Origin: Gammaproteobacteria bacterium | Lineage (GTDB): Bacteria; Pseudomonadota; Gammaproteobacteria; QQUJ01 | NCBI GenBank assembly: GCA_050287605.1 | Contig: JBNKCG010000119.1 | Coordinates: forward strand, 15,095 to 79,094 | DNA: 64,000 nt | Direction of reading: 5' to 3' | Part shown: positions 5,542-15,105 of the stretch, piece by piece | How the letters are laid out: every line of letters starts with the position of its first letter | Numbering within the stretch: position 1 is the first letter of the stretch | Notes under the pieces: generated by a model | Seen by the model: the letters and a program-made list of their open reading frames with translations, nothing else | Databases searched by the model: none | Told to the model about the DNA's origin: nothing | Made by a program: the position numbers and the translations under genes

Positions 5542-6891
5542 TTACGCTTCGATGGGCACGAAAATCGCCCCGCCTCGCGCCGCGACCTGTCTTACCTGCA
5601 GGTTCCCGTTACGCTGGGTGGCTTCGGCTGCCCCGAGCGCGTCGGCGAACGGGAGATGGTTGCCGCGTAGCGGCAGTGGAAGGGAACAGTCGAGCGCTTG
5701 TTTTCCGCCGTTGATCACGATGACGGCGATATCGCAGCGCGTGCGACGCAGAAACGCGACGGCTTGCCGTTGATCGTCGCTCCATAGGCATCGCCAATCC
5801 CCCGCCTTCAACGCCTCCCGCGATCTGCGCAGTGCACTCAAGCAGCGCATGTGGCTCTGCAGTTCCGTATTCCAGAGCGAGGAATCCCAGATCATCGCGC
5901 GCCGGTTATCGGGATCCTCACCGCCCTCCATCCCCACCTCGTCGCCGTAATAGATGGCCGGTACGCCGGGTATGACAAACTGCAGCAGCGCAAGGAGCTT
6001 GATCGTGTCCACATCTCCACCCGTGGCGTTCCACAACCGCGGCGTATCGTGCGAACCCAGCAGGTTCAACATGCCCAACGTGGTCTGCCACGGAACGCGC
6101 TGCAGCTGCCGTTCGATGCTCCGCGCAAATTGCGATGCGGCGAGCCGGTGGTGCACCACGAATTCGAACAGCACTTCGCGCAGCGGATAGTTAGTGGCGC
6201 CGCTGAAGTCTCCGCGATCAAGCCAAGGTTGCGCATCCTCCCAAATCTCAGCCAACAGATAGGCATCCGGTCGCACCCGGCGCACTGCATCGCGCAGGGC
6301 ACGCCAGAAAGGACGATGGCGCACGTGGCGTACGGCATCGAGTCGCCAGCCGTCCACGCCCCACCGGGTCCAGTACGTCGCCACGTCGAGAAAGTATCGT
6401 TGCGTCTGCGGGTGGGCGAGACGCAGCTCCGGCAGATCGGCCACGTCCTGCCACGCGGCGTAGCGGTGTTTGCCGCCGATGAACAACGGAAATCCGTCGA
6501 CGTAGAACCAATCCCTGTAGACGGAGCCCTCGCTCTTTTGCACCACATCGGTAAACGGGAAGAAATCACGCCCGCAATGATTGAAGGTGCCATCCAGAAT
6601 CACGCGTATTCCCCGCCGGTGCGCTTCGCTCAACAGTCTTCTGAACGTCCCCAGATCGCCCGCCCGGGGATCAATGCTGTAGTAGTCGCGAGTGTTGTAG
6701 CGGTGATTGGAACGGGAGAGAAAAATCGGCGTCAGGCACACCACGTTGGCACCCAGCCAACGGATGTAGTCCAGCTTTTGGATGATGCCGGCGAGATCAC
6801 CGCCCATGAAGTGATCGCGCGTGGGCGGCGTTCCCCAGGGAACCAGGCCCGGATATGAGCGATGCGAAATCCCCCGGGCGAACCGATCCAC
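5542..6891 (-). CDS. GH13 neopullulanase/cyclomaltodextrinase-like alpha-glucanase; last gene of the 14-gene operon
   Basis: GGDLAGIIQKLDYI, SNHRY, DGTFNH, DGWRLDA (nucleophile), AEIW (acid/base), GSHD, YYGDEVG, DPDNRR. The conserved WxxxxIVYQIFVDRF motif extends upstream of the GTG at 6891 (see findings). Confidence 0.88.
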   Translation of the reverse strand: MDRFARGISHRSYPGLVPWGTPPTRDHFMGGDLAGIIQKLDYIRWLGANVVCLTPIFLSRSNHRYNTRDYYSIDPRAGDLGTFRRLLSEAHRRGIRVILDGTFNHCGRDFFPFTDVVQKSEGSVYRDWFYVDGFPLFIGGKHRYAAWQDVADLPELRLAHPQTQRYFLDVATYWTRWGVDGWRLDAVRHVRHRPFWRALRDAVRRVRPDAYLLAEIWEDAQPWLDRGDFSGATNYPLREVLFEFVVHHRLAASQFARSIERQLQRVPWQTTLGMLNLLGSHDTPRLWNATGGDVDTIKLLALLQFVIPGVPAIYYGDEVGMEGGEDPDNRRAMIWDSSLWNTELQSHMRCLSALRRSREALKAGDWRCLWSDDQRQAVAFLRRTRCDIAVIVINGGKQALDCSLPLPLRGNHLPFADALGAAEATQRNGNLQVRQVAARGGAIFVPIEA

Positions 6892-6977
6892 GAATATCTG
6901 ATAGACGATCGCCTCGCGATGCCACTCATCCGCAACCGTCGCAGCTTCGGGCGCCGGTACAACGCCCTGTCGCCCGC

Positions 6978-7547
6978 TTAGCAGCAGCAGTTACCGACGC
7001 TGGGCTGACAGCCGCACGCTGCGTGGTGGGTATGGCAGCAGTCGCAACAGTCATGAACGTGGCATTGGCCATGTGCCGCCTCTGCGCACGGATAGTCCGC
7101 ATAGGGAGCGTCCCAACCACCCGATGGGTAAGCCGCGGACGACAGGCCGCTCAGAAATCGCAGCCCTCCGGCCAAACCAGCGTTCAACACCTCGATGCCC
7201 TGCCGCAAAGTGGAGCCCAACCGGTCCCCCAGCGGGCCAGTCGTGACTCCCGCGCCCACGGGAATTCCCGGTAACGGTACCCCCGTGCCCGGTGTTACCG
7301 GCAGCGGCGCCATGGAAGGTGGAAGCCCCCAACGCACTGGACCGTAGTAAGGCCCGCCCTGCGGGACGTACGCGTAGGCGGCCGCGAACGGCGGCGGCAT
7401 CGCCGAACCCTGTCCCGGCGCGTCACCGCGTTCGGCCTGGGCGGCTTCGTATTTCGCCTTGTGGCGATCGAATTCCAGCTGGGCCTTGGTGGGGGATGCG
7501 CTTTTCTTGACCGTTGCGCCTTTCGGGCGACTCTTCTTAACTGCCAT
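6978..7547 (-). CDS. Hypothetical protein (189 aa): Lys-rich N-terminus, Pro/Gly/Tyr-rich middle, amphipathic helix, Cys/His-rich C-terminus ending CCC
   Basis: Start reassigned to ATG 7547 (MAVKKSRPK) after strong RBS AAGGAG; the longer ORF-track version overlaps the upstream gene. Confidence 0.8.
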   Translation of the reverse strand: MAVKKSRPKGATVKKSASPTKAQLEFDRHKAKYEAAQAERGDAPGQGSAMPPPFAAAYAYVPQGGPYYGPVRWGLPPSMAPLPVTPGTGVPLPGIPVGAGVTTGPLGDRLGSTLRQGIEVLNAGLAGGLRFLSGLSSAAYPSGGWDAPYADYPCAEAAHGQCHVHDCCDCCHTHHAACGCQPSVGNCCC

Positions 7548-7570
7548 GCGATTTCTCCTTGGCACAGTCC

Positions 7571-8257
7571 TCAGCAGCTGAACACTTCGCACCAGCGAAT
7601 ACGTGCCGTCATGTTGACCACGACCACTGCCAGGTTGGCACCGGGTTTGGTGGTGAGAATGCCTTCGCAGATCTGGTAGCCGCTGCCCTGCTCCACCCGT
7701 TTCCCCCAGACCAATGCAGTGCCCTCGCTGTCGGTGACCAGAACGCCGACCAAGGAGACGGCCGTCGCCGCCACGGGCACGTATTCGATGGAGAGATGCA
7801 CGCAGCACCCACCACCGATAAACGCTCTGCCCAATCCGAACCTGTTGGTCGCCCGGGAGCCGATGGCGATCGCTTCCACCCTGACGCTGCTCAGATTGAT
7901 CTCGGAGAACGCTTCGGCACTCTTCGCTTCGTCAGCGCTCGTCTTCGCTTCGACTCCGCTTTCCGCCGCAGTGGTGGCAACCACTTTGGCGACCGCATCC
8001 ATGACGCGGAAATCGGCAGCCAATTGCGGGTTCTCCTTCAAGTCGTTGGCGCTCAGCGTCGACTCGACCAACAGCTCCTTGGACTCTTTGCGGCACTCCC
8101 GCGTATGACAGCAACATTGCGACGCCGGGTGGCAGCAACTGTGGCAAAAACCGCCGTGTCCGTGGTGCGGATGCGGATGCGGATGGTGAGCATGTGCATC
8201 CCAGTGTCCATAGGGATGTCCGGTATATCGTGGTGTTACGCCGTGTCCTCGGTGCAT
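7571..8257 (-). CDS. Hypothetical His/Cys-rich protein with C-terminal 'ARIRWCE' beta-domain (paralog of 8287..8733)
   Basis: RBS GAGGAGGGAGG; N-terminal HAHHPHPHPHHGH and CHSCCH..CCCH; C-terminal domain aligns with neighbouring gene. Confidence 0.82.
   Translation of the reverse strand: MHRGHGVTPRYTGHPYGHWDAHAHHPHPHPHHGHGGFCHSCCHPASQCCCHTRECRKESKELLVESTLSANDLKENPQLAADFRVMDAVAKVVATTAAESGVEAKTSADEAKSAEAFSEINLSSVRVEAIAIGSRATNRFGLGRAFIGGGCCVHLSIEYVPVAATAVSLVGVLVTDSEGTALVWGKRVEQGSGYQICEGILTTKPGANLAVVVVNMTARIRWCEVFSC
8166..8185. repeat. Tandem hexamer (TGCGGA)x3 encoding His-Pro repeats
   Basis: tgcggatgcggatgcggatg read directly; encodes part of HPHPHPH on the minus strand. Confidence 0.7.
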
Positions 8258-8286
8258 ATCGCTAACCCTCCCTCCTCAATCGTCAA

Positions 8287-8733
8287 TCAGCGGCAAACGG
8301 TTTCGCACCAGCGCAACCGCGCGATGGCGTCGACCACCTCCAGCGTGACCTTGGCGCCGGGATCCAGCGCCAGGAACTCCTCGTCCATTTGGTATCCCTC
8401 CGGCAGCCCGCCGCTGGTCGTGGTGGTGGAGGTACCGTCCTTGACGACGGTTACCTTCACTTCGGGCGCCGCCGCTCCCGCCTCGACGTACGTCTCAAGC
8501 GTGAGCCGCACCCCGGAGAATCCACCGACGATCGTCTCGCCTGGTGCCGCGGGATCCGCCGTCAACTCCTGCGGCATCACTTGCGGGACGTGGCAGCCAG
8601 GGGCTGCGGGCATGGCCGGGTACGGCACCGGCACGTAATAGAGATAAACCCCGGCGCAACCCGGCGGTTGGCCCCAGTGGTGATCTCCGTAACCGTGACC
8701 CGGGGAACAACAGTGTGAGTGATAGTGAGACAT
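8287..8733 (-). CDS. Hypothetical His/Cys-rich protein with C-terminal 'ARLRWCE' beta-domain
   Basis: RBS AAAGGAG; N-terminal MSHYHSHCC; clear paralogy with 7571..8257. Confidence 0.82.
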   Translation of the reverse strand: MSHYHSHCCSPGHGYGDHHWGQPPGCAGVYLYYVPVPYPAMPAAPGCHVPQVMPQELTADPAAPGETIVGGFSGVRLTLETYVEAGAAAPEVKVTVVKDGTSTTTTSGGLPEGYQMDEEFLALDPGAKVTLEVVDAIARLRWCETVCR

Positions 8734-8745
8734 GATCGTTCTCCT

Positions 8746-8940
8746 TTACGACTCGTCGGCCTCCGTCTCTTCGGGTGCCGTCAGATCCCTGACCGCTTTC
8801 AATACGTCGCCCGCCACTTCGAAACCGACCTTGACCACCGTAGTGGCCGCATCCGACAGTTTGTCCGTCACCTGACTGTCGATTAAGCCGGCGGATACGT
8901 CGTGTACGATTCGGTTGACCGAGCCCAATATGGAAGCCAT
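8746..8940 (-). CDS. Small (64 aa) amphipathic helical protein MASILGSVNRIVHDV...RDLTAPEETEADES
   Basis: ATG at 8940 after RBS GAAGGAG; the ORF track's 8746..9237 extension overlaps the reductase gene and is spurious upstream of this ATG. Confidence 0.8.
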   Translation of the reverse strand: MASILGSVNRIVHDVSAGLIDSQVTDKLSDAATTVVKVGFEVAGDVLKAVRDLTAPEETEADES

Positions 8941-8999
8941 AGCCGTCTCCTTCGATATAGCCCAACAGCGCCGATCGCCGACGCCCGATTGTTTGCCGC

Positions 9000-10412
9000 T
9001 TATGCCGTCAAACGCCGCTCCACCAGCTTCACGGCGTTGGTCGCCACCTCCAGCCCCCAGTCTAGATGATCCAGCGGACGGCGGCTCATGGAGCGCCCTA
9101 CGCTGGCCATGCTGGCGTAGGTGTCCACCGCCAGGCGCAGGGCCCCGACCCCCTTGCCGCGGGAGTGCTCCAGCAGGCTCAGCCAGCTTCCCGCCCGCTT
9201 GGGAAACGCGTCGTACAATGCCCGCGGCGACAGGCACGCACTTTGCGACACGACACCACTGAACACCCCGCTGCAGAAATCCTGGAACGCAGGATCTCCC
9301 TCACCCAGGCGACCGATCTGCGTCAGCAAAAACAGGCAGAAGTCCTTCATCGCCGGGTTTTTCGCGATGGTGAGAAAGAGCTCTGCCGTACGCCAATCCA
9401 GCTCGACATGCTCGCGCAGTAGCTGCTCGTATCGCACTAGTGTCTGCCGCGAAAAATCTCCCACCGATAAGGCGTGGCGCACGGCCTCGGCCGCGTAATA
9501 GGCTCCCTCCATAGCCTTGTGTATACCGCCCCCGTTGAGCGGATCGATCTGGTTGGCCGCGTCACCCACCAGCAGCACCCGGTCGGCGACGATGCGCAGT
9601 GGTTTGTAGAACGCTGCCGATCCGCCGCCCAATGGTCCGCACTGTTTGGCATTTGCCAGCGGGACAGCCAACGAGGTGGCGAGAAATCGTTTGAACGTGT
9701 CGCGCAGTCCGTCAAGAATGGGAAACGTGGGATCGAACGCGTAGCCCATACCGATGTTGGCGAATCCGGCATCGTCCACGAACAGCCAGCCGTAGCCCGG
9801 GAAGTAGCTGCGGTCGAAGTAGACCTTCACCTGCGCACCTTCCACCGCGACGTTTTCGAAGTAGGCGCGAATGGAAACCGCCTCGGCGCCGTCGTGCAGC
9901 GTGTTGCCGATGCAGCGCGACACGACCGACGCCACGCCATCGGCACCGATCACCACCCTGCCCCGGTACTTGACGAGGTTCTTGCCGGATTGTGCCTGCA
10001 CCTCGACGGCATCGCGCTGTGCTGTGACCGACTTGACCTGCGCCCGTTCGAAGCGGGCGCCACAAGCCACCGCATGCTCCATCACCGTGGCGTCGAAGCG
10101 GCGGCGATCGAGCAGCGTGGCAAACGCGGGATAACGGCTGTTTTCCGGAAATCTGCCACGCAGCACATGTCGGTCGTTGATATAGAGATCGCACTCCTTG
10201 AAGCAGGCTTCGGTCTGCGCGAGCACCGCGTCGATGCAACCCAACTGGTCCAGCCAGTAAAGGGCCTGCGGGGTCAGTCCGTCCCCGCACACCTTGTCGC
10301 GCGGAAACGCCGCCTTGTCCAGAAGCAGAACCGACACGCCGTGACGGGCCAGAAAGCCGGCCGCACTGCTTCCGCCGGGTCCTGCGCCGACGATGATGGC
10401 GTCGTAGATCAC
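9000..10412 (-). CDS. Geranylgeranyl reductase family FAD-dependent oxidoreductase with C-terminal helical extension
   Basis: DAIIVGAGPGG, FPRDKVCGDGL, RRRFD, GADG, PGYGWLF, LVGDAA..DPLNGGGI. Confidence 0.88.
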   Translation of the reverse strand: MIYDAIIVGAGPGGSSAAGFLARHGVSVLLLDKAAFPRDKVCGDGLTPQALYWLDQLGCIDAVLAQTEACFKECDLYINDRHVLRGRFPENSRYPAFATLLDRRRFDATVMEHAVACGARFERAQVKSVTAQRDAVEVQAQSGKNLVKYRGRVVIGADGVASVVSRCIGNTLHDGAEAVSIRAYFENVAVEGAQVKVYFDRSYFPGYGWLFVDDAGFANIGMGYAFDPTFPILDGLRDTFKRFLATSLAVPLANAKQCGPLGGGSAAFYKPLRIVADRVLLVGDAANQIDPLNGGGIHKAMEGAYYAAEAVRHALSVGDFSRQTLVRYEQLLREHVELDWRTAELFLTIAKNPAMKDFCLFLLTQIGRLGEGDPAFQDFCSGVFSGVVSQSACLSPRALYDAFPKRAGSWLSLLEHSRGKGVGALRLAVDTYASMASVGRSMSRRPLDHLDWGLEVATNAVKLVERRLTA

Positions 10413-10433
10413 GGGTGCGAGCTTCCCGTCCGT

Positions 10434-11108
10434 CTAGGGTGCAACCACGATGCGCACCGGTATCCGAAACGACTCATCGGAACTGACCACCACCGAACCG
10501 AGGTAGATGTCCGGTGGGGTCTCCGGTACCAGTGCGCCCTGCAGCACGAACTTTTCGAAATCCATGGGGGCAATGCTCTTCTTGGGCGGTTTCACGGTGA
10601 ACGCATCGGGAGGAACCGGATGGCCGGTGGACTCGCCCACCATGCCTTCGAAGGCGACGGTTACCCGCTTGGTTTCGGTCAGCGAATCGTTGTTGATGGA
10701 AAACGAGACTTTGACCACGCCCCCCGGCGCCAACGGCAGCCGATTGGTGATGCAGTACACCGGCATCTCCGGTTCGGGCGCCGGCGGCGGCTCGGTCGGG
10801 GCCGCGTCGGGCGCGGCGCCATCCTGCGCTGTCGGGGGCGGGGAGGCCCCGCCGATGGATATCCCGTCAAAGAGCTTCTGCTGTGCGACGCTGCCGACCC
10901 GGTCGATGACCGTCAATCCCAGGCTAAGTCCCGCCTCGGCCAGTTCCAGCCCTTTGGAAAAGAGCGACCCGATCTGATCGGCCTTGCCCGAAAACGAAGC
11001 CGCCACTCCGGGGCCGCGCCCCCCGTCCCCGCTCGCGCGCCCCGTCTGGGAGCGGGTGCCGCCCGCCGTCCCCGTCTCACCGCCGTTCGCCCGTTTCGAC
11101 TCCGCCAT
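10434..11108 (-). CDS. Hypothetical protein (224 aa): amphipathic helix, Pro-rich linker, C-terminal Ig-like beta-sandwich
   Basis: Start reassigned to ATG 11108 (MAESKR) after GGGAGAG; alternating beta-strand pattern at C-terminus (VKVSFSINN, YLGSVVV, IPVRIVV). Confidence 0.78.
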   Translation of the reverse strand: MAESKRANGGETGTAGGTRSQTGRASGDGGRGPGVAASFSGKADQIGSLFSKGLELAEAGLSLGLTVIDRVGSVAQQKLFDGISIGGASPPPTAQDGAAPDAAPTEPPPAPEPEMPVYCITNRLPLAPGGVVKVSFSINNDSLTETKRVTVAFEGMVGESTGHPVPPDAFTVKPPKKSIAPMDFEKFVLQGALVPETPPDIYLGSVVVSSDESFRIPVRIVVAP

Positions 11109-11128
11109 AGCGCTCTCCCGATCCCGAG

Positions 11129-11389
11129 TTACCTGCAACCGCACGTATCGCAATGACACTCCGGTACGTGGTGGTACCGGTAGTGATGATGAACCTCGCA
11201 ACATCCATGAGCAGCGTGATGCACGTTGACAGCGGACAGACCGCCCCAGGCCAACCCCTCCACGGTGTTGCGTGCGGCAACAACCCCGAACCGCAGTGCG
11301 CCGAACGCAAGGCCCAGCGCGCCTCCCACCAGCTCACCGAGGGCTGCGCCGCTCTGGTGCGCGAGACACTCCTGACGCGTGTGATTCAT
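11129..11389 (-). CDS. Small hypothetical protein (86 aa): Gly/Ala helix plus His/Cys-rich C-terminus
   Basis: ATG 11389 (MNHTRQECL) after RBS GGGGAGG; ends HHAAHGCCEVHHHYRYHHVPECHCDTCGCR. Confidence 0.78.
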   Translation of the reverse strand: MNHTRQECLAHQSGAALGELVGGALGLAFGALRFGVVAARNTVEGLAWGGLSAVNVHHAAHGCCEVHHHYRYHHVPECHCDTCGCR

Positions 11390-11394
11390 TCGTT

Positions 11395-12090
11395 TCACCT
11401 CCCCTGTCCGATGCCGCTGACGGCCGGTTGCACCGAGGCAGCGACGGGTTCGTGGGGTCGGTTGTCGCCGACCGCGAAGTGGCTGGGTGCCCCGCCGACC
11501 CGCAGTCCCCAACAGCCGTTCCGATCGTGCACCGCGACGCTGTCTGCGTGCGGTGAGGGGGCGTCGACAACGCGCGTCCTGGTTTCCACACAGCGCTCGG
11601 TGCGGATGACCGGAATCGCTGGATTGCCCACGGCGGCGATCTCCGCGTAACTGCGCTCATGGGTTTTGACCTGCTCGCGACGGATCCGGTCACGCGGCTT
11701 CAACCAGCTCTGTCCGTGAATGTTGAGGCGCAGGATCTCGATACCGAGGAAACGCGCATGCACGGTGTACTCCGACGGCAGCTGAAAATCCTGATTCAGG
11801 CCGATGGCCAGTGGCGGCATACGCCGCAGGTTGACGTCCATGGCCGGCATGCGACTCATGGCCAGGTTCACCGTCGGCACATGCGTGACGTTGAGCCGCT
11901 CCACGTGCACTGGATCGAGATTGCGCACATGGTCGATGCGCAGCGATTCCACCGAAATGGGATCGATGTGGTTGAGCTCTTTGACGTGAATCGCCGCCGG
12001 TGCGATCTTTTCAATCTTCTCGATTTTTCGGATCGTGTCGATGGTGACATCGGCGATGTCTTTGACGTGAGTGACGTTGACGTTGCCCAT
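11395..12090 (-). CDS. Hypothetical beta-repeat protein
   Basis: RBS GAGGGAG; internal repeats KIEKIEKI, VKELNHIDPISVESL/IDHVRNLDPVHVERL, NVTHVPTVNL/AMSRMPAMDV/NLRRMPPLAI. Confidence 0.8.
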   Translation of the reverse strand: MGNVNVTHVKDIADVTIDTIRKIEKIEKIAPAAIHVKELNHIDPISVESLRIDHVRNLDPVHVERLNVTHVPTVNLAMSRMPAMDVNLRRMPPLAIGLNQDFQLPSEYTVHARFLGIEILRLNIHGQSWLKPRDRIRREQVKTHERSYAEIAAVGNPAIPVIRTERCVETRTRVVDAPSPHADSVAVHDRNGCWGLRVGGAPSHFAVGDNRPHEPVAASVQPAVSGIGQGR

Positions 12091-12118
12091 ACGCTTCTCC
12101 CTCGGCGGCGCCGGCGGA

Positions 12119-12835
12119 TCAGATTCCCGGCCAGTTGTAGTTGATGACCAGGATCTTTGCCTCTTCGTAAACCGACGTCTGATGTTTGCTGCGTGCGCGG
12201 ATCACCACCGTTTTGGTGCTGCCCGACCCCGCCACTTCATAGCGGAACTGATGAAACGGTTCGTTGTTGAATTGCAGTACCCCGTTCACCAGCCATTCGA
12301 TCTCACGGGTCGTACTGTTCCACAGCGCAGCGTGAAAAAGCTGCTGGGTGTTGCTTTTGTCGATGTAGGCGTTGTGCTGGCCCTGCGGGTAATAGAGTGT
12401 TGCGTGTTTCGGCCACAGCTGGAGAGTGGTTTCAGCAACGGGTTCGGGCCCGACGCCGACCAGCGTCACCCACGCGTAGGCTTTGCGTAGCGGGTCTTCG
12501 CGCGAACTCACGACCACGATGTCGGTCGCACCATTGCTCAATGCGCCCTTGACGGGGGCGCGGTAGACGCCGCCTGCATCGATGCTGCCGGCGCCGGGGT
12601 TGCCGGAGAGATCCAGTACCTCCCAGCGCACACCCCGGTTTGAGTTGGTGACGGCCGCTTCGAAGCGTACTTGCGTGGTGGCGGGATTGGCGAACCGCTC
12701 GTCACGGAAATTCACCTCGGCGCGCGGCGGCCAGATCTCCACTTCAACCCGATGACGGCATTCGATGTGGTGGTACACATCGATCACCCGATGTGGACGA
12801 CCCCGTTGGGGCGGACCGTGGGGAAACGAACTCAT
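12119..12835 (-). CDS. Hypothetical protein with two tandem bacterial Ig-like domains
   Basis: Repeat pattern (I/L)WP..A....QxxFxA......IxW.V seen twice; GSIDAGGVYRAP is typical of Big_2-like domains; no signal peptide. Confidence 0.72.
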   Translation of the reverse strand: MSSFPHGPPQRGRPHRVIDVYHHIECRHRVEVEIWPPRAEVNFRDERFANPATTQVRFEAAVTNSNRGVRWEVLDLSGNPGAGSIDAGGVYRAPVKGALSNGATDIVVVSSREDPLRKAYAWVTLVGVGPEPVAETTLQLWPKHATLYYPQGQHNAYIDKSNTQQLFHAALWNSTTREIEWLVNGVLQFNNEPFHQFRYEVAGSGSTKTVVIRARSKHQTSVYEEAKILVINYNWPGI

Positions 12836-12846
12836 GCGCGCCTTTC

Positions 12847-13272
12847 TCAGTCGTCCAGGCAGTCGACGTCGTCGCCCGCGGCCAGTTCGATCGCCGCCTT
12901 GGTGACGCGACCGGGCATCTTGGCGTCGAAATCGACGGCCATTTTGCAGGCGACCGTCCCGTCGAGCCGGCAGTTCATTCCCTCTTTACCCAGCACGCCG
13001 CCCAATTTCACGCCAAAGGCCTGTACCTCGGCCTCAATGGGATCGAGGCGAATCCCGAAGGGGCTGATGGACGCGACGGTGACCACTCCGCAGTGGCGGC
13101 GCAGAAACGGTATCGTCAAGCGGATGGGGATGGCGCTGACCTGAGCGGTGATGGGCTGGCTTTTGAAGCGGAAGCCCGCCTCCCCCTGGACGTCGAACGC
13201 CAGCGGATCCGAGTGCATGTTGATTTTGAATTCCGGGCACCCCTCGACGACCGCCCGCGATTGAAATTTCAT
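12847..13272 (-). CDS. Hypothetical beta-strand-rich protein (141 aa)
   Basis: RBS GGAGGAG; ATGA overlap with upstream stop; long alternating hydrophobic/polar pattern. Confidence 0.78.
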   Translation of the reverse strand: MKFQSRAVVEGCPEFKINMHSDPLAFDVQGEAGFRFKSQPITAQVSAIPIRLTIPFLRRHCGVVTVASISPFGIRLDPIEAEVQAFGVKLGGVLGKEGMNCRLDGTVACKMAVDFDAKMPGRVTKAAIELAAGDDVDCLDD

Positions 13273-13490
13273 CGTTTCTCCTCCGGCTCACTCACCCCGC
13301 CTTCTTGCCCCTCCGACATCGCGCTCGCCTGCGGATAGACGCGTTCGGCCAGGTCGCTGCACATGGCATCCACCATCCGGTTGAGATCGTCGAACCCCTT
13401 GAGGGCCTCTGCGATCTCCGTGCAGTTCTCCCCCTCCACCTCGAATGAGACCAAAGGTCCCAGACGTATCTTCAATGTCATATTTGGCAT
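13269..13490 (-). CDS. Small hypothetical protein (73 aa)
   Basis: Purine-rich RBS; fills the operon gap exactly and is translationally coupled to the next gene. Confidence 0.72.
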   Translation of the reverse strand: MPNMTLKIRLGPLVSFEVEGENCTEIAEALKGFDDLNRMVDAMCSDLAERVYPQASAMSEGQEGGVSEPEEKR

Positions 13491-13523
13491 CGTGCCCTCT
13501 TCCCCAAACGGGTTGGTCGTGAT

Positions 13524-14126
13524 CTATCTCTCCGTCGGCGGATCCCTGCCGTCTTGCGTTTGATCCGCTTCGCCACCTTCGCTGATCTGATCGTCCAGTC
13601 GACGCACCGCGCCGATGATGCCGTCCAGCGACGAGATGACGACATCGACGATCTGCCGTTCCTGATGATCCAGCTCGCGGTAGACGCCCTCCAGACCCGC
13701 GCCCAGATCTCTGCCCTCCTGGCTCTTGCGGTACTCGCGGCCGCGCTCCATCAGAACCCCGCTAAACTGGTCGACGATGGACAGCAGACCATAGAGCAGG
13801 TCGGTGTGATTGCGCTCTTCGCTGGGCGCCGGTTCCCGCGGTGCCGGCTGACAAACGGTGCAGGCGTACTTGTGCTCCTGCTCGCCGATCTTCCACAAGC
13901 CATAGAGCGCGCTCTTGGAGCTCTCGGGGATGGCCTTGCATCCTCGCTTGTGTAGTTTCCCAAGTGCGGTATCAAATTGGTACGGCGCTTGCGCCGCCTC
14001 TTCCCGGTTGTCGATCTTCAACAACGGTTGATTGCCGCGCAGTCGGTTTGCCCGCTGCAGCTCCTGCAGCTTGAGCGCGAACGCGTCGCCCAACGATGCC
14101 GCACCGGTGGGTGTTTCCCTACTCAT
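13524..14126 (-). CDS. Hypothetical protein with Ada-type metal-binding-like motif and C-terminal amphipathic helices
   Basis: Start ATG 14126 overlaps upstream stop (ATGAGTAG); motif KLHKRGC...YACTVCQP. Confidence 0.75.
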   Translation of the reverse strand: MSRETPTGAASLGDAFALKLQELQRANRLRGNQPLLKIDNREEAAQAPYQFDTALGKLHKRGCKAIPESSKSALYGLWKIGEQEHKYACTVCQPAPREPAPSEERNHTDLLYGLLSIVDQFSGVLMERGREYRKSQEGRDLGAGLEGVYRELDHQERQIVDVVISSLDGIIGAVRRLDDQISEGGEADQTQDGRDPPTER

Positions 14127-15045
14127 AGACCGCCCATGCCGTCGCACCGTAACGCTTTTGGCGCGCGTGTTTCTCCAGGCGCGTCAGGTAGTAGCGGGTA
14201 AGAAAGGCGATGAGCAACTCACTGCCCGATCCCTTGGACAACCCGCGCACCAGACGATCGATGGAGGTGGTGAATATTGAACGCAGCGTACGTACCGGGG
14301 CCTTGACCTGGTTCATGTAGGTGATGCGCTTATCGTGCAGATCGGCGTGGCAGTCGCCGTGATCGTCGATGTGCATAATCAACGCGCCAGCGGTGAATAC
14401 CGACGCACAAAACGAGAGGGGCAGATTGGGAACCAGAAATGCCGACAGCACGAGTATGGCGTGTCCGCTGCGATCGCGTGCAAACCGCTTCAACTGCTGA
14501 AGCTGTCGGCGACGCGAAAGTTGATCGAAGTTAGTGCGGTCGAGGCGCAACTCCACGTCACGTTTTTGCGCTTCGTACAGCCGCAGGATCGCCTGCCGCA
14601 AGGTTGGGTCCAAGACGTCGCGTTCGGCAAACAGCCGGGTCAGGATAATGTAGAACAGTTTCTCGCGGGGCGAGTTGATCTCAAACCAGCCCTTGGTCAA
14701 CAGCCGCTCGAACCGCCGCAGGTATTCCCGCGTCGCCTCGACGCCGAAGTCGTCGAGAAAACTGTCCGCCAGAAAACAGCAGCCGCCGAACAGGCTACCG
14801 AGACTTCTGCGCCGTTCATCGTATTCGTAACCGGCGATTTCCGTACAGGCGTGTCCCACCAAGGTCATCTTGGTGCTGAGCTCGATCAGCTTGCGGTATT
14901 CGTTGTTCTGGTTGTTCCGCAACTCCGGGTAGTACTGATCGATCAGGGGATCGAGGGTCGCGGCGGCGGCAGCGCGGTAAACCGGTATCAGCTCGTCAAC
15001 GCGCTGCGAACCGATTTCGTTGCTGAAGTGTCCGTCAGCGCGCAC
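14119..15045 (-). CDS. Class I isoprenoid synthase-fold protein (prenyltransferase/terpene synthase-like); first gene of operon
   Basis: All-alpha pattern with two Asp-rich motifs, ADSFLDD and IDDHGDCHADLHD, plus AQKRD (cf. GQxxD) between them. Confidence 0.68.
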   Translation of the reverse strand: MRADGHFSNEIGSQRVDELIPVYRAAAAATLDPLIDQYYPELRNNQNNEYRKLIELSTKMTLVGHACTEIAGYEYDERRRSLGSLFGGCCFLADSFLDDFGVEATREYLRRFERLLTKGWFEINSPREKLFYIILTRLFAERDVLDPTLRQAILRLYEAQKRDVELRLDRTNFDQLSRRRQLQQLKRFARDRSGHAILVLSAFLVPNLPLSFCASVFTAGALIMHIDDHGDCHADLHDKRITYMNQVKAPVRTLRSIFTTSIDRLVRGLSKGSGSELLIAFLTRYYLTRLEKHARQKRYGATAWAVYE

Positions 15046-15089: not shown

Positions 15090-15105
15090 TACAACTGATG
15101 TGCCA
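15090..15105 (-). promoter_or_regulatory. Candidate sigma54 (-24/-12) promoter of the 14-gene operon
   Basis: Minus strand TGGCAC-ATCAG-TTGTA, about 45 nt before the first start codon; the -12 element is GT rather than consensus GC. Confidence 0.45.

Follow-up and report, generated by a model that had tools for sequence, protein, structure and literature searches.

A sequence motif shared by two otherwise unrelated proteins of a thirteen-gene bacterial operon, a candidate docking helix

The operon studied here lies in a 64,000-nucleotide stretch of gammaproteobacterial DNA (assembly GCA_050287605.1, contig JBNKCG010000119.1, positions 15,095 to 79,094 of the forward strand; this whole stretch is called the window below). 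Its 13 genes are on the minus strand, in the order L-K-M-J-I-H-G-F-E-D-C-B-A. We found that two of the encoded proteins, A and F, otherwise unrelated, carry the same presumably helical motif, which we tentatively read as a docking or assembly signal. A previous reading of the window, made from the letters alone (the sequence-only reading), had proposed an amphipathic helix common to five proteins of the operon, A, D, E, F and G. The five peptides it quoted are all present letter for letter on the minus strand where it had placed them. As a common motif, the proposal holds for A and F; it is marginal for G and does not hold for D and E, whose likeness is matched by that of control proteins. The two proteins and their motifs are located as follows.

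6978..7547, minus strand: protein A, 189 residues; no Pfam or NCBIfam match
7152..7226, minus strand: shared motif in A, residues 108-132 (DRLGSTLRQGIEVLNAGLAGGLRFL)
10434..11108, minus strand: protein F, 224 residues; no Pfam, NCBIfam, PADLOC or PDB match
10905..10979, minus strand: shared motif in F, residues 44-68 (DQIGSLFSKGLELAEAGLSLGLTVI)

Protein A is composed of a variable N-terminus, a short conserved helix, a Pro-rich spacer, the shared motif and a Cys-rich C-terminal tail which ends in a conserved C-C-x-P-[SG]-V-G-x-C-C. In F, a variable N-terminus precedes the motif, which is followed by a Pro/Ala-rich linker and a conserved C-terminal domain read as beta-rich from its sequence.

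To compare the families of the operon, we built orthologue alignments and weighted profiles for all of them; the permutation nulls used with these profiles preserve composition, not helical periodicity. A 25-column profile of the F motif, built from 42 sequences, was compared with every one of the 1976 windows in the profiles of the other 11 families. The best match, at 19.9 bits, fell in A, exactly on the site quoted in the sequence-only reading, and the next best reached 10.3 bits. With all families included, 2000 column permutations gave at most 14.96 bits, below the A-F score, and chance is excluded for this match. A-F was also the top cross-family match in an unbiased all-versus-all scan with 20 columns, the B-C paralogy and Cys/His-rich stretches being set aside. 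With hhalign, A and F were aligned over 39 columns at an E-value of 0.0012; restricted to the helices, the comparison reached 6e-4 with 36 columns aligned and ranked first among 36 pairs.

The motif is confined to these two proteins. A joint A+F hidden Markov model (HMM) run on 42,390 six-frame open reading frames (ORFs) of the genome gave 39.1 and 39.0 bits to these two proteins, the next best ORF scoring 9.3. We also applied it to the six-frame ORFs of 41 related loci, which are the yield of a scan over one genome per species; many of them are truncated by contig ends, and they are not phylogenetically independent. Exactly two ORFs scored at least 15 bits in 31 of these loci and one did in the other 10. 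Neither the downstream gene of glycoside hydrolase family GH13 nor the flanking genes of the 41 loci carried the motif. Protein M, found later and used as a negative control, did not carry it either (p 0.65).

The consensus of the motif can be written D-x-[LIM]-G-x-x-L-x-x-G-[LIV]-D-L-x-x-A-[GA]-L-x-x-G, within a conserved segment of about 25-39 residues. Hydrophobic residues with a 3-4 spacing form a seam (motif positions 3, 7, 11, 14, 18, 22 and 25), with Gly beside it at positions 4, 10, 17 and 21, of which 17 and 21 make up a GxxxG pair. At position 12, an Asp or Glu is kept in both the A and F families. Residues D44, Q45, G47, L54, L56, A57, E58, A59, G60, L63 and G64 of F, including the GxxxG pair (G60, G64), are invariant in 22 of 22 sequences, and its core reads GLDLA in 36 of 42; across phyla, the F motif is nearly invariant. 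The F motif has a mean pairwise column identity of 0.68; the C-terminal domain of F reaches 0.55, and the low-complexity linkers on either side of the motif 0.19-0.26. In A, the values are 0.52 for the motif, 0.53 for the Cys-rich tail and 0.29-0.34 for the flanks. The motif is the best (F) or joint-best (A) conserved part of its protein, isolated between variable low-complexity linkers, in orthologues from Proteobacteria, Nitrospirota, Methylomirabilota and others. The conservation in orthologues on which the sequence-only reading had made its proposal depend was therefore observed for the motif in both F and A.

Amphipathicity, also part of the original proposal, was evaluated by the best 18-residue hydrophobic moment. 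Values of A (0.52), D (0.58) and E (0.53) lie at or above the 95th percentile of the genome background (0.47); those of F (0.44, around the 90th percentile of genome 18-mers) and G (0.32) lie below. D is strongly amphipathic, its moment ranging from 0.58 to 0.64, at least the 99th percentile, and the helix of G is uniformly hydrophobic instead of amphipathic.

The three other proteins named in the sequence-only reading, in which we looked for further copies, are the following.

8746..8940, minus strand: protein D, 64 residues; strongly amphipathic helix at residues 32-53 (window 8782-8847)
9000..10412, minus strand: protein E, 470 residues; flavoprotein of the geranylgeranyl reductase family; C-terminal extension of about 130 residues, with a conserved amphipathic helix at its end (residues 447-468, window 9009-9074)
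11129..11389, minus strand: protein G, 86 residues; His-containing N-terminus, hydrophobic Gly/Ala/Leu-rich helix at residues 15-39 (window 11273-11347), Cys/His-rich tail with a conserved HHY..C.PP.Y.C

For G, the evidence was marginal. Scored against the joint A+F profile, it reached 11.1 bits, with a family-wise p of 0.0008 and a p over ten families of 0.033 (5000 permutations). Its helix alone aligned by hhalign with that of A at an E-value of 0.023 and with that of F at 0.029, the level also attained by control pairs of proteins which had not been nominated (F-K 0.015, F-L 0.019, K-L 0.023). The G helix is poorly conserved, with a column identity of 0.24. At full length, A and G matched with a probability of 75-78% and an E-value of 2e-5; we rejected this match as evidence for the motif since it comes mainly from the Cys-rich tails and falls to control level when restricted to the helices. 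The G helix is thus a possible, divergent third copy of the motif.

D and E gave a different result. The D helix aligned in register with 8.4 bits (family-wise p 0.025, global p 0.47), and the un-nominated protein H reached the same level (7.6 bits, p 0.04). For the C-terminus of E, the score in register was 6.65 bits, and this was not the best window inside E (family-wise p 0.26). Local ungapped profile scoring with 300 permutations found no family significant and did not rescue the E and D core. The proposed pentapeptide core G-[LIF]-E-[VL]-[AL] does occur four times in the 2607 residues of the operon proteins, compared to 0.086 expected, but the pattern had been fitted to those same four occurrences. 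A looser core, G-hydrophobic-[DE]-hydrophobic-hydrophobic, was found at the aligned place in 38 of 42 F, 21 of 29 A and 25 of 41 E sequences; it was present in 7 of 37 sequences of D, whose acidic core residue is likewise kept in only 7 of 37 orthologues. Rather than copies of the motif, the helices of D and E look like separate conserved amphipathic helices, which may bind a hydrophobic surface; the simplest reading of their likeness to the motif is chance. A C-D match obtained in a first hhalign comparison (96.6%) was discarded as an artefact of one read-through ORF in a single locus (L003).

What could such a motif do? It is conserved above the folded domain of F and stands between variable linkers in two different proteins of one operon, which leads us to favour, with slightly less than even confidence, a sequence-specific protein-protein docking or assembly helix. 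The near-invariance of the motif in F would be easier to explain by a specific protein contact than by lipid binding of a generic kind. The common docking helix of the sequence-only reading accordingly survives for A and F, where the same segment is an island of conservation in otherwise unrelated proteins, and not for five proteins. In the mechanism we have in mind, the modular helix would bring the Cys-rich A and the domain-bearing F to one common partner or to each other, with the small Cys-rich G perhaps joining as a degenerate third member, in the setting of a cytoplasmic multi-protein assembly built by the 13-gene operon. The contact would be made by helix-helix packing, through the Leu/Ile seam with its 3-4 spacing, the face of small residues and the single acidic residue that is conserved. 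The shared motif with its conservation, its confinement to two ORFs per locus and the operon with its distribution are observations, whereas helical structure, binding and assembly are inferred here from sequence.

Several known systems offer points of comparison. The passages of PMC4594438 that deal with the encapsulation peptides of bacterial microcompartments (BMCs) describe them as amphipathic helices of 15-20 residues with a poorly conserved linker and no sequence conservation. The A/F segment resembles them in being short and presumably helical, in its poorly conserved linkers with many small or hydrophilic residues (as given above, motif identities of 0.68 in F and 0.52 in A, with flanks of 0.19-0.26 and 0.29-0.34, respectively) and in its presence on more than one unrelated protein of the locus. 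It differs in being nearly invariant in F, in lying inside the protein and in its greater length (25-39 columns). Moreover, the BMC shell family PF00936 had no match in the operon or anywhere in the window's own genome (98.4% complete), in which positive controls were matched. The same was true of the encapsulin shell (Linocin_M18, PF04454), again with positive controls matched. With neither a BMC shell gene nor an encapsulin gene, and with a near-invariant motif, A/F falls outside the class of BMC encapsulation peptides.

Cargo proteins of encapsulins carry a conserved signature at the C-terminus, in the form of a short extended motif. The A/F motif shares with these cargo-loading peptides a conserved signature common to different proteins of neighbouring genes. 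It differs in its internal position (residues 44-68 of 224 in F and 108-132 of 189 in A) and in being a presumed helix, about 25 residues long. GxxxG and similar small-residue motifs have a role in helix packing. The invariant Gly 17 and 21 of F, with further Gly at 4 and 10 beside the Leu seam, recall these motifs; the small residues of A are less regular, and neither protein shows membrane-spanning hydrophobicity, a 19-residue hydrophobic maximum of at least 1.6 being reached in 0 of 29 A and 9 of 42 F orthologues. Phasins, lipid-droplet proteins and chlorosome envelope proteins, with their surface helices on lipid or polymer inclusions, also invite comparison: the operon encodes small or modular proteins bearing amphipathic helices, D above all, and a reductase-family enzyme, E, which could act on isoprenoid chains. 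On the other hand, no such Pfam family and no lipid or polymer synthase was found in the operon, and the A/F motif is sequence-specific. By analogy, the A/F motif is best read as possibly working like an encapsulation or cargo-loading peptide, in a genome without a known shell gene.

Several points weigh against a docking helix, and some of them favour its rivals. With 4-5 glycines among its 25 residues, the segment would be unfavourable as a free helix. The acidic residue of the A motif is missing from the most divergent loci (L030, L036 and L037), in which the F motif remains intact. An HMM built from F only gives single A sequences at most 6.5 bits, compared to a top of 9.1 bits in the genome background; this model is too sharp, which is why profile-profile tests were used, and the A-F match is visible only by a profile or by the joint model. 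A and F motifs from the same locus are not significantly more alike than those from different loci (36.4 versus 35.2, p 0.064), and there is thus no sign of co-adaptation. The motif could also be shared by descent without any shared function. In such a case, an ancestral helix module would have been duplicated or shuffled among the genes of the operon and kept for separate reasons internal to each protein. The missing co-variation just described would be expected from this, the B-C paralogy shows that duplication has taken place inside the operon, and A and G are built alike, with a Cys-rich tail after a helix, and give the full-length match reported above. As we have seen, however, that match comes mainly from the tails while the helices alone are at control level. 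In addition, the same positions are conserved in both the A and F families across phyla, which points to the same constraint on both, and a segment isolated between non-conserved linkers has the layout one would expect of an independent interaction module. We therefore hold descent alone to be a rather improbable explanation.

Binding to lipids or membranes appears slightly more probable than this, although still unlikely. The helices of A, F, G, D and E would then all lie on an isoprenoid-lipid body or a membrane surface, in the manner of phasins. The moments of A, D and E are at or above the 95th percentile, F lies near the 90th and the G helix is uniformly hydrophobic. The operon also includes an enzyme of the geranylgeranyl reductase family (E) and, in L, a protein with a consistent hydrophobic stretch (about 19-35 residues) and with Asp-rich motifs that may resemble those of isoprenoid synthases. 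Against this, the F motif is nearly invariant across phyla and above its own folded domain in conservation, and near-invariance is unusual for helices that need amphipathicity alone. Since D and E lack the motif, no common sequence signal extends over all five proteins. No lipid-synthesis gene was found, L having no detectable relation to polyprenyl synthases or others, and no phasin or lipid-body family of Pfam was matched at an E-value of 0.1 or below by A, B, C, D, F, G or H. The docking to a lipid monolayer proposed in the sequence-only reading found no supporting evidence, the reductase-family E being the only lipid-related gene. That all five likenesses arose by chance between Gly/Ala/Leu-rich helices in a GC-rich genome is very improbable. 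D, E and the un-nominated H, K and L do reach similarly low motif scores, the pentapeptide statistic is post hoc and the F-only HMM barely sees A. Nevertheless, the A-F profile score exceeds every one of the composition-preserving permutations, the joint model singles out A and F alone, both genome-wide and across the 41 loci, and both segments are conserved across phyla.

If the motif is indeed a docking signal, it would give a direct experimental handle on an otherwise uncharacterised operon; attached to a reporter, the peptide of about 25 residues could show where the assembly is and what it contains. One may go further and imagine a new cytoplasmic body or large assembly in which A, B, C and G, as Cys/His metal-thiolate proteins, are abundant and for which the A/F (and perhaps G) helix would be the targeting or assembly peptide. 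Reduced isoprenoid chains, which E and L would make or trim, might be associated with it and could even be attached to the C-terminal Cys clusters. Its scaffold, of a new kind, would be found among H, I, J, K and M, and the motif would be a new class of encapsulation signal. This picture is speculative and we give it a low probability.

The remaining genes of the operon and its immediate neighbourhood are listed below.

5542..6891, minus strand: alpha-amylase-family (GH13) gene directly downstream of A; Pfam Alpha-amylase, E-value 5.3e-62
7571..8257, minus strand: protein B, 228 residues; His/Cys-rich N-terminus, conserved C-terminal domain; no Pfam or PDB match
8287..8733, minus strand: protein C, 148 residues; His/Cys-rich N-terminus; paralogue of B
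11395..12090, minus strand: protein H, 231 residues; no Pfam or PDB match
12119..12835, minus strand: protein I, 238 residues; conserved, mean column identity of the alignment 53%; no PDB match
12847..13272, minus strand: protein J, 141 residues; conserved; no PDB match
13269..13490, minus strand: protein M, 73 residues, between K and J; no Pfam match
13524..14147, minus strand: protein K, 207 residues; conserved Cys residues, helical-looking C-terminal half
14119..15045, minus strand: protein L, 308 residues; no Pfam or PDB match

The operon and the GH13 gene form a row of closely packed genes on the minus strand (window 5542-15045), with gaps of -4 to about 86 bases. M is a conserved small gene which the sequence-only reading had not listed; there is a 4-base overlap between its stop and the start of J. 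A near-consensus sigma-54-type promoter sequence, TGGCAC-N5-TTGT, is present on the minus strand at window 15091-15105, about 46 bases upstream of the L start. None of 31 other loci has the pattern upstream of its L gene, and it was rejected as a feature of the operon, being either due to chance or lineage-specific. No tRNA or Rfam match was found within the window.

E is the only one of the 13 operon proteins with a match to a Pfam or NCBIfam family. It scored 187 bits with TIGR02032 (cut-off 158.8, E-value 6.2e-55), which places it in the geranylgeranyl reductase family, and matched FAD_binding_3 of Pfam at 8.4e-26; all equivalog models (MenJ, BchP/ChlP, archaeal lipid reductases) were far below their cut-offs. 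A, B, C, D, F, G, H, K, L and M had no Pfam or NCBIfam match at the thresholds used, and I and J gave merely sub-threshold noise. The ten operon proteins A, B, C, E, F, H, I, J, K and L matched 0 PADLOC families of anti-phage defence systems. Profile searches against PDB sequences with the alignments of B, F, H, I, J, K and L returned nothing below an E-value of 0.01, the best of some weak coiled-coil-like matches of K reaching 0.025. For the GH13 gene, the nearest NCBIfam models were cyclomaltodextrinase and maltodextrin glucosidase, both below cut-offs.

B and C are clear paralogues (hhalign probability 99.8%, E-value 2e-28). Conserved Cys/His-rich segments with CC doublets occur in four proteins, A, B, C and G, and these thiol clusters, if the proteins are cytoplasmic, suggest metal binding. 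The N-terminal half of H is made of short Leu/Val/Ile/Pro-rich repeats, with units like Ile/Val/Leu-x-x-(Ile/Val/Leu)-x-Pro, and H may be a repeat scaffold; in the Protein Atlas, it gave unnamed clusters only. Longer, fused forms of F were not found, which is weak evidence by the nature of the search.

Of all the operon proteins, L is the most conserved (mean column identity 66%). Its family is isolated, with 48 matches at an E-value of 1e-3 or below among 1.84 billion representative proteins and one full-length cluster only. It carries invariant D-S-F-x-D-D and I-D-D-H-G-D motifs about 130 residues apart, which may resemble the Asp-rich motifs of isoprenoid synthases. An assignment of L to these enzymes was tried and rejected: hhalign against 30 polyprenyl synthases gave a probability of 0.4%, 1 of 30 orthologues touched PF00348, at an E-value of 0.11, a PF00348 search of its own genome returned two other genes, L not among them, and the PDB profile search gave no relevant match. 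The hydrophobic stretch of L lies at residues 196-214, and 24 of 35 orthologues have a 19-residue maximum of at least 1.6. The same value was reached in 12 of 37 orthologues of B; L and these B sequences apart, no family had a consistent transmembrane-like segment. Inspection by eye of the operon proteins revealed no signal-peptide-like N-termini.

Taken together, the Cys/His proteins, the reductase-family E, the isolated, highly conserved and enzyme-like L, the repeat protein H and the facultative GH13 neighbour make the operon look like the parts list of a multi-protein assembly. The Cys/His-rich proteins would point to metal handling and the reductase-family enzyme to isoprenoid chemistry.

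Homologues of F numbered 330 at an E-value of 0.001 or below. The 41 related loci are carried by Alpha-, Beta- and Gammaproteobacteria, Nitrospira/Nitrospirales, Methylomirabilis, Calditrichaeota, Chitinivibrionales and others, and tblastn with the window proteins recovered an unchanged gene order, all on one strand, in almost every locus. By this search, F was present in 41 loci, E in 40, H in 39, I in 38, D and J in 37, B and C in 36, K in 35, L in 34 and A in 28; diverged A genes were recognised additionally by the motif HMM in L010, L014 and L039. M had tblastn matches in 36 of 41 loci, with 48-72% identity. An ORF of at least 35 residues was present in the H-F gap of 37 of the 39 loci having both H and F; 5 were removed (wrong frame or unlike the others), leaving 32 G-like sequences with the Cys-rich tail. 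In the other loci, the starts of A and G genes were set by a simple rule.

Ten of the 41 loci, from Gammaproteobacteria, Nitrospira, Methylomirabilis and Gallionella, have a GH13 homologue in this downstream position and orientation, with at least 43% identity in 9 cases. This neighbour hints at a tie of the operon to alpha-glucan metabolism.

L was found in 2 of 400 genomes of the window's own class, its own genome counted, and not in the same-genus genome searched (98% complete). Rare in its own class yet present in several phyla, the operon shows a patchy spread, probably that of a horizontally moving accessory operon; a plasmid collection searched with L gave no match. Full-text searching of a limited literature collection found no paper on the operon or the motif. 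Named isolates with the operon include Paraburkholderia panacisoli DCY113 and Caulobacter sp. BK020, and an F homologue is present in Hypericibacter terrae. With such cultured isolates, the docking idea could be tested at the bench.

One locus, L039, from a Gallionella metagenome-assembled genome (about 6300-12030), is a variant in which K and L were not found by tblastn. Its sole E-like match lies upstream of J in the opposite orientation. Whereas E stands between F and D in other loci, D here comes close behind F.

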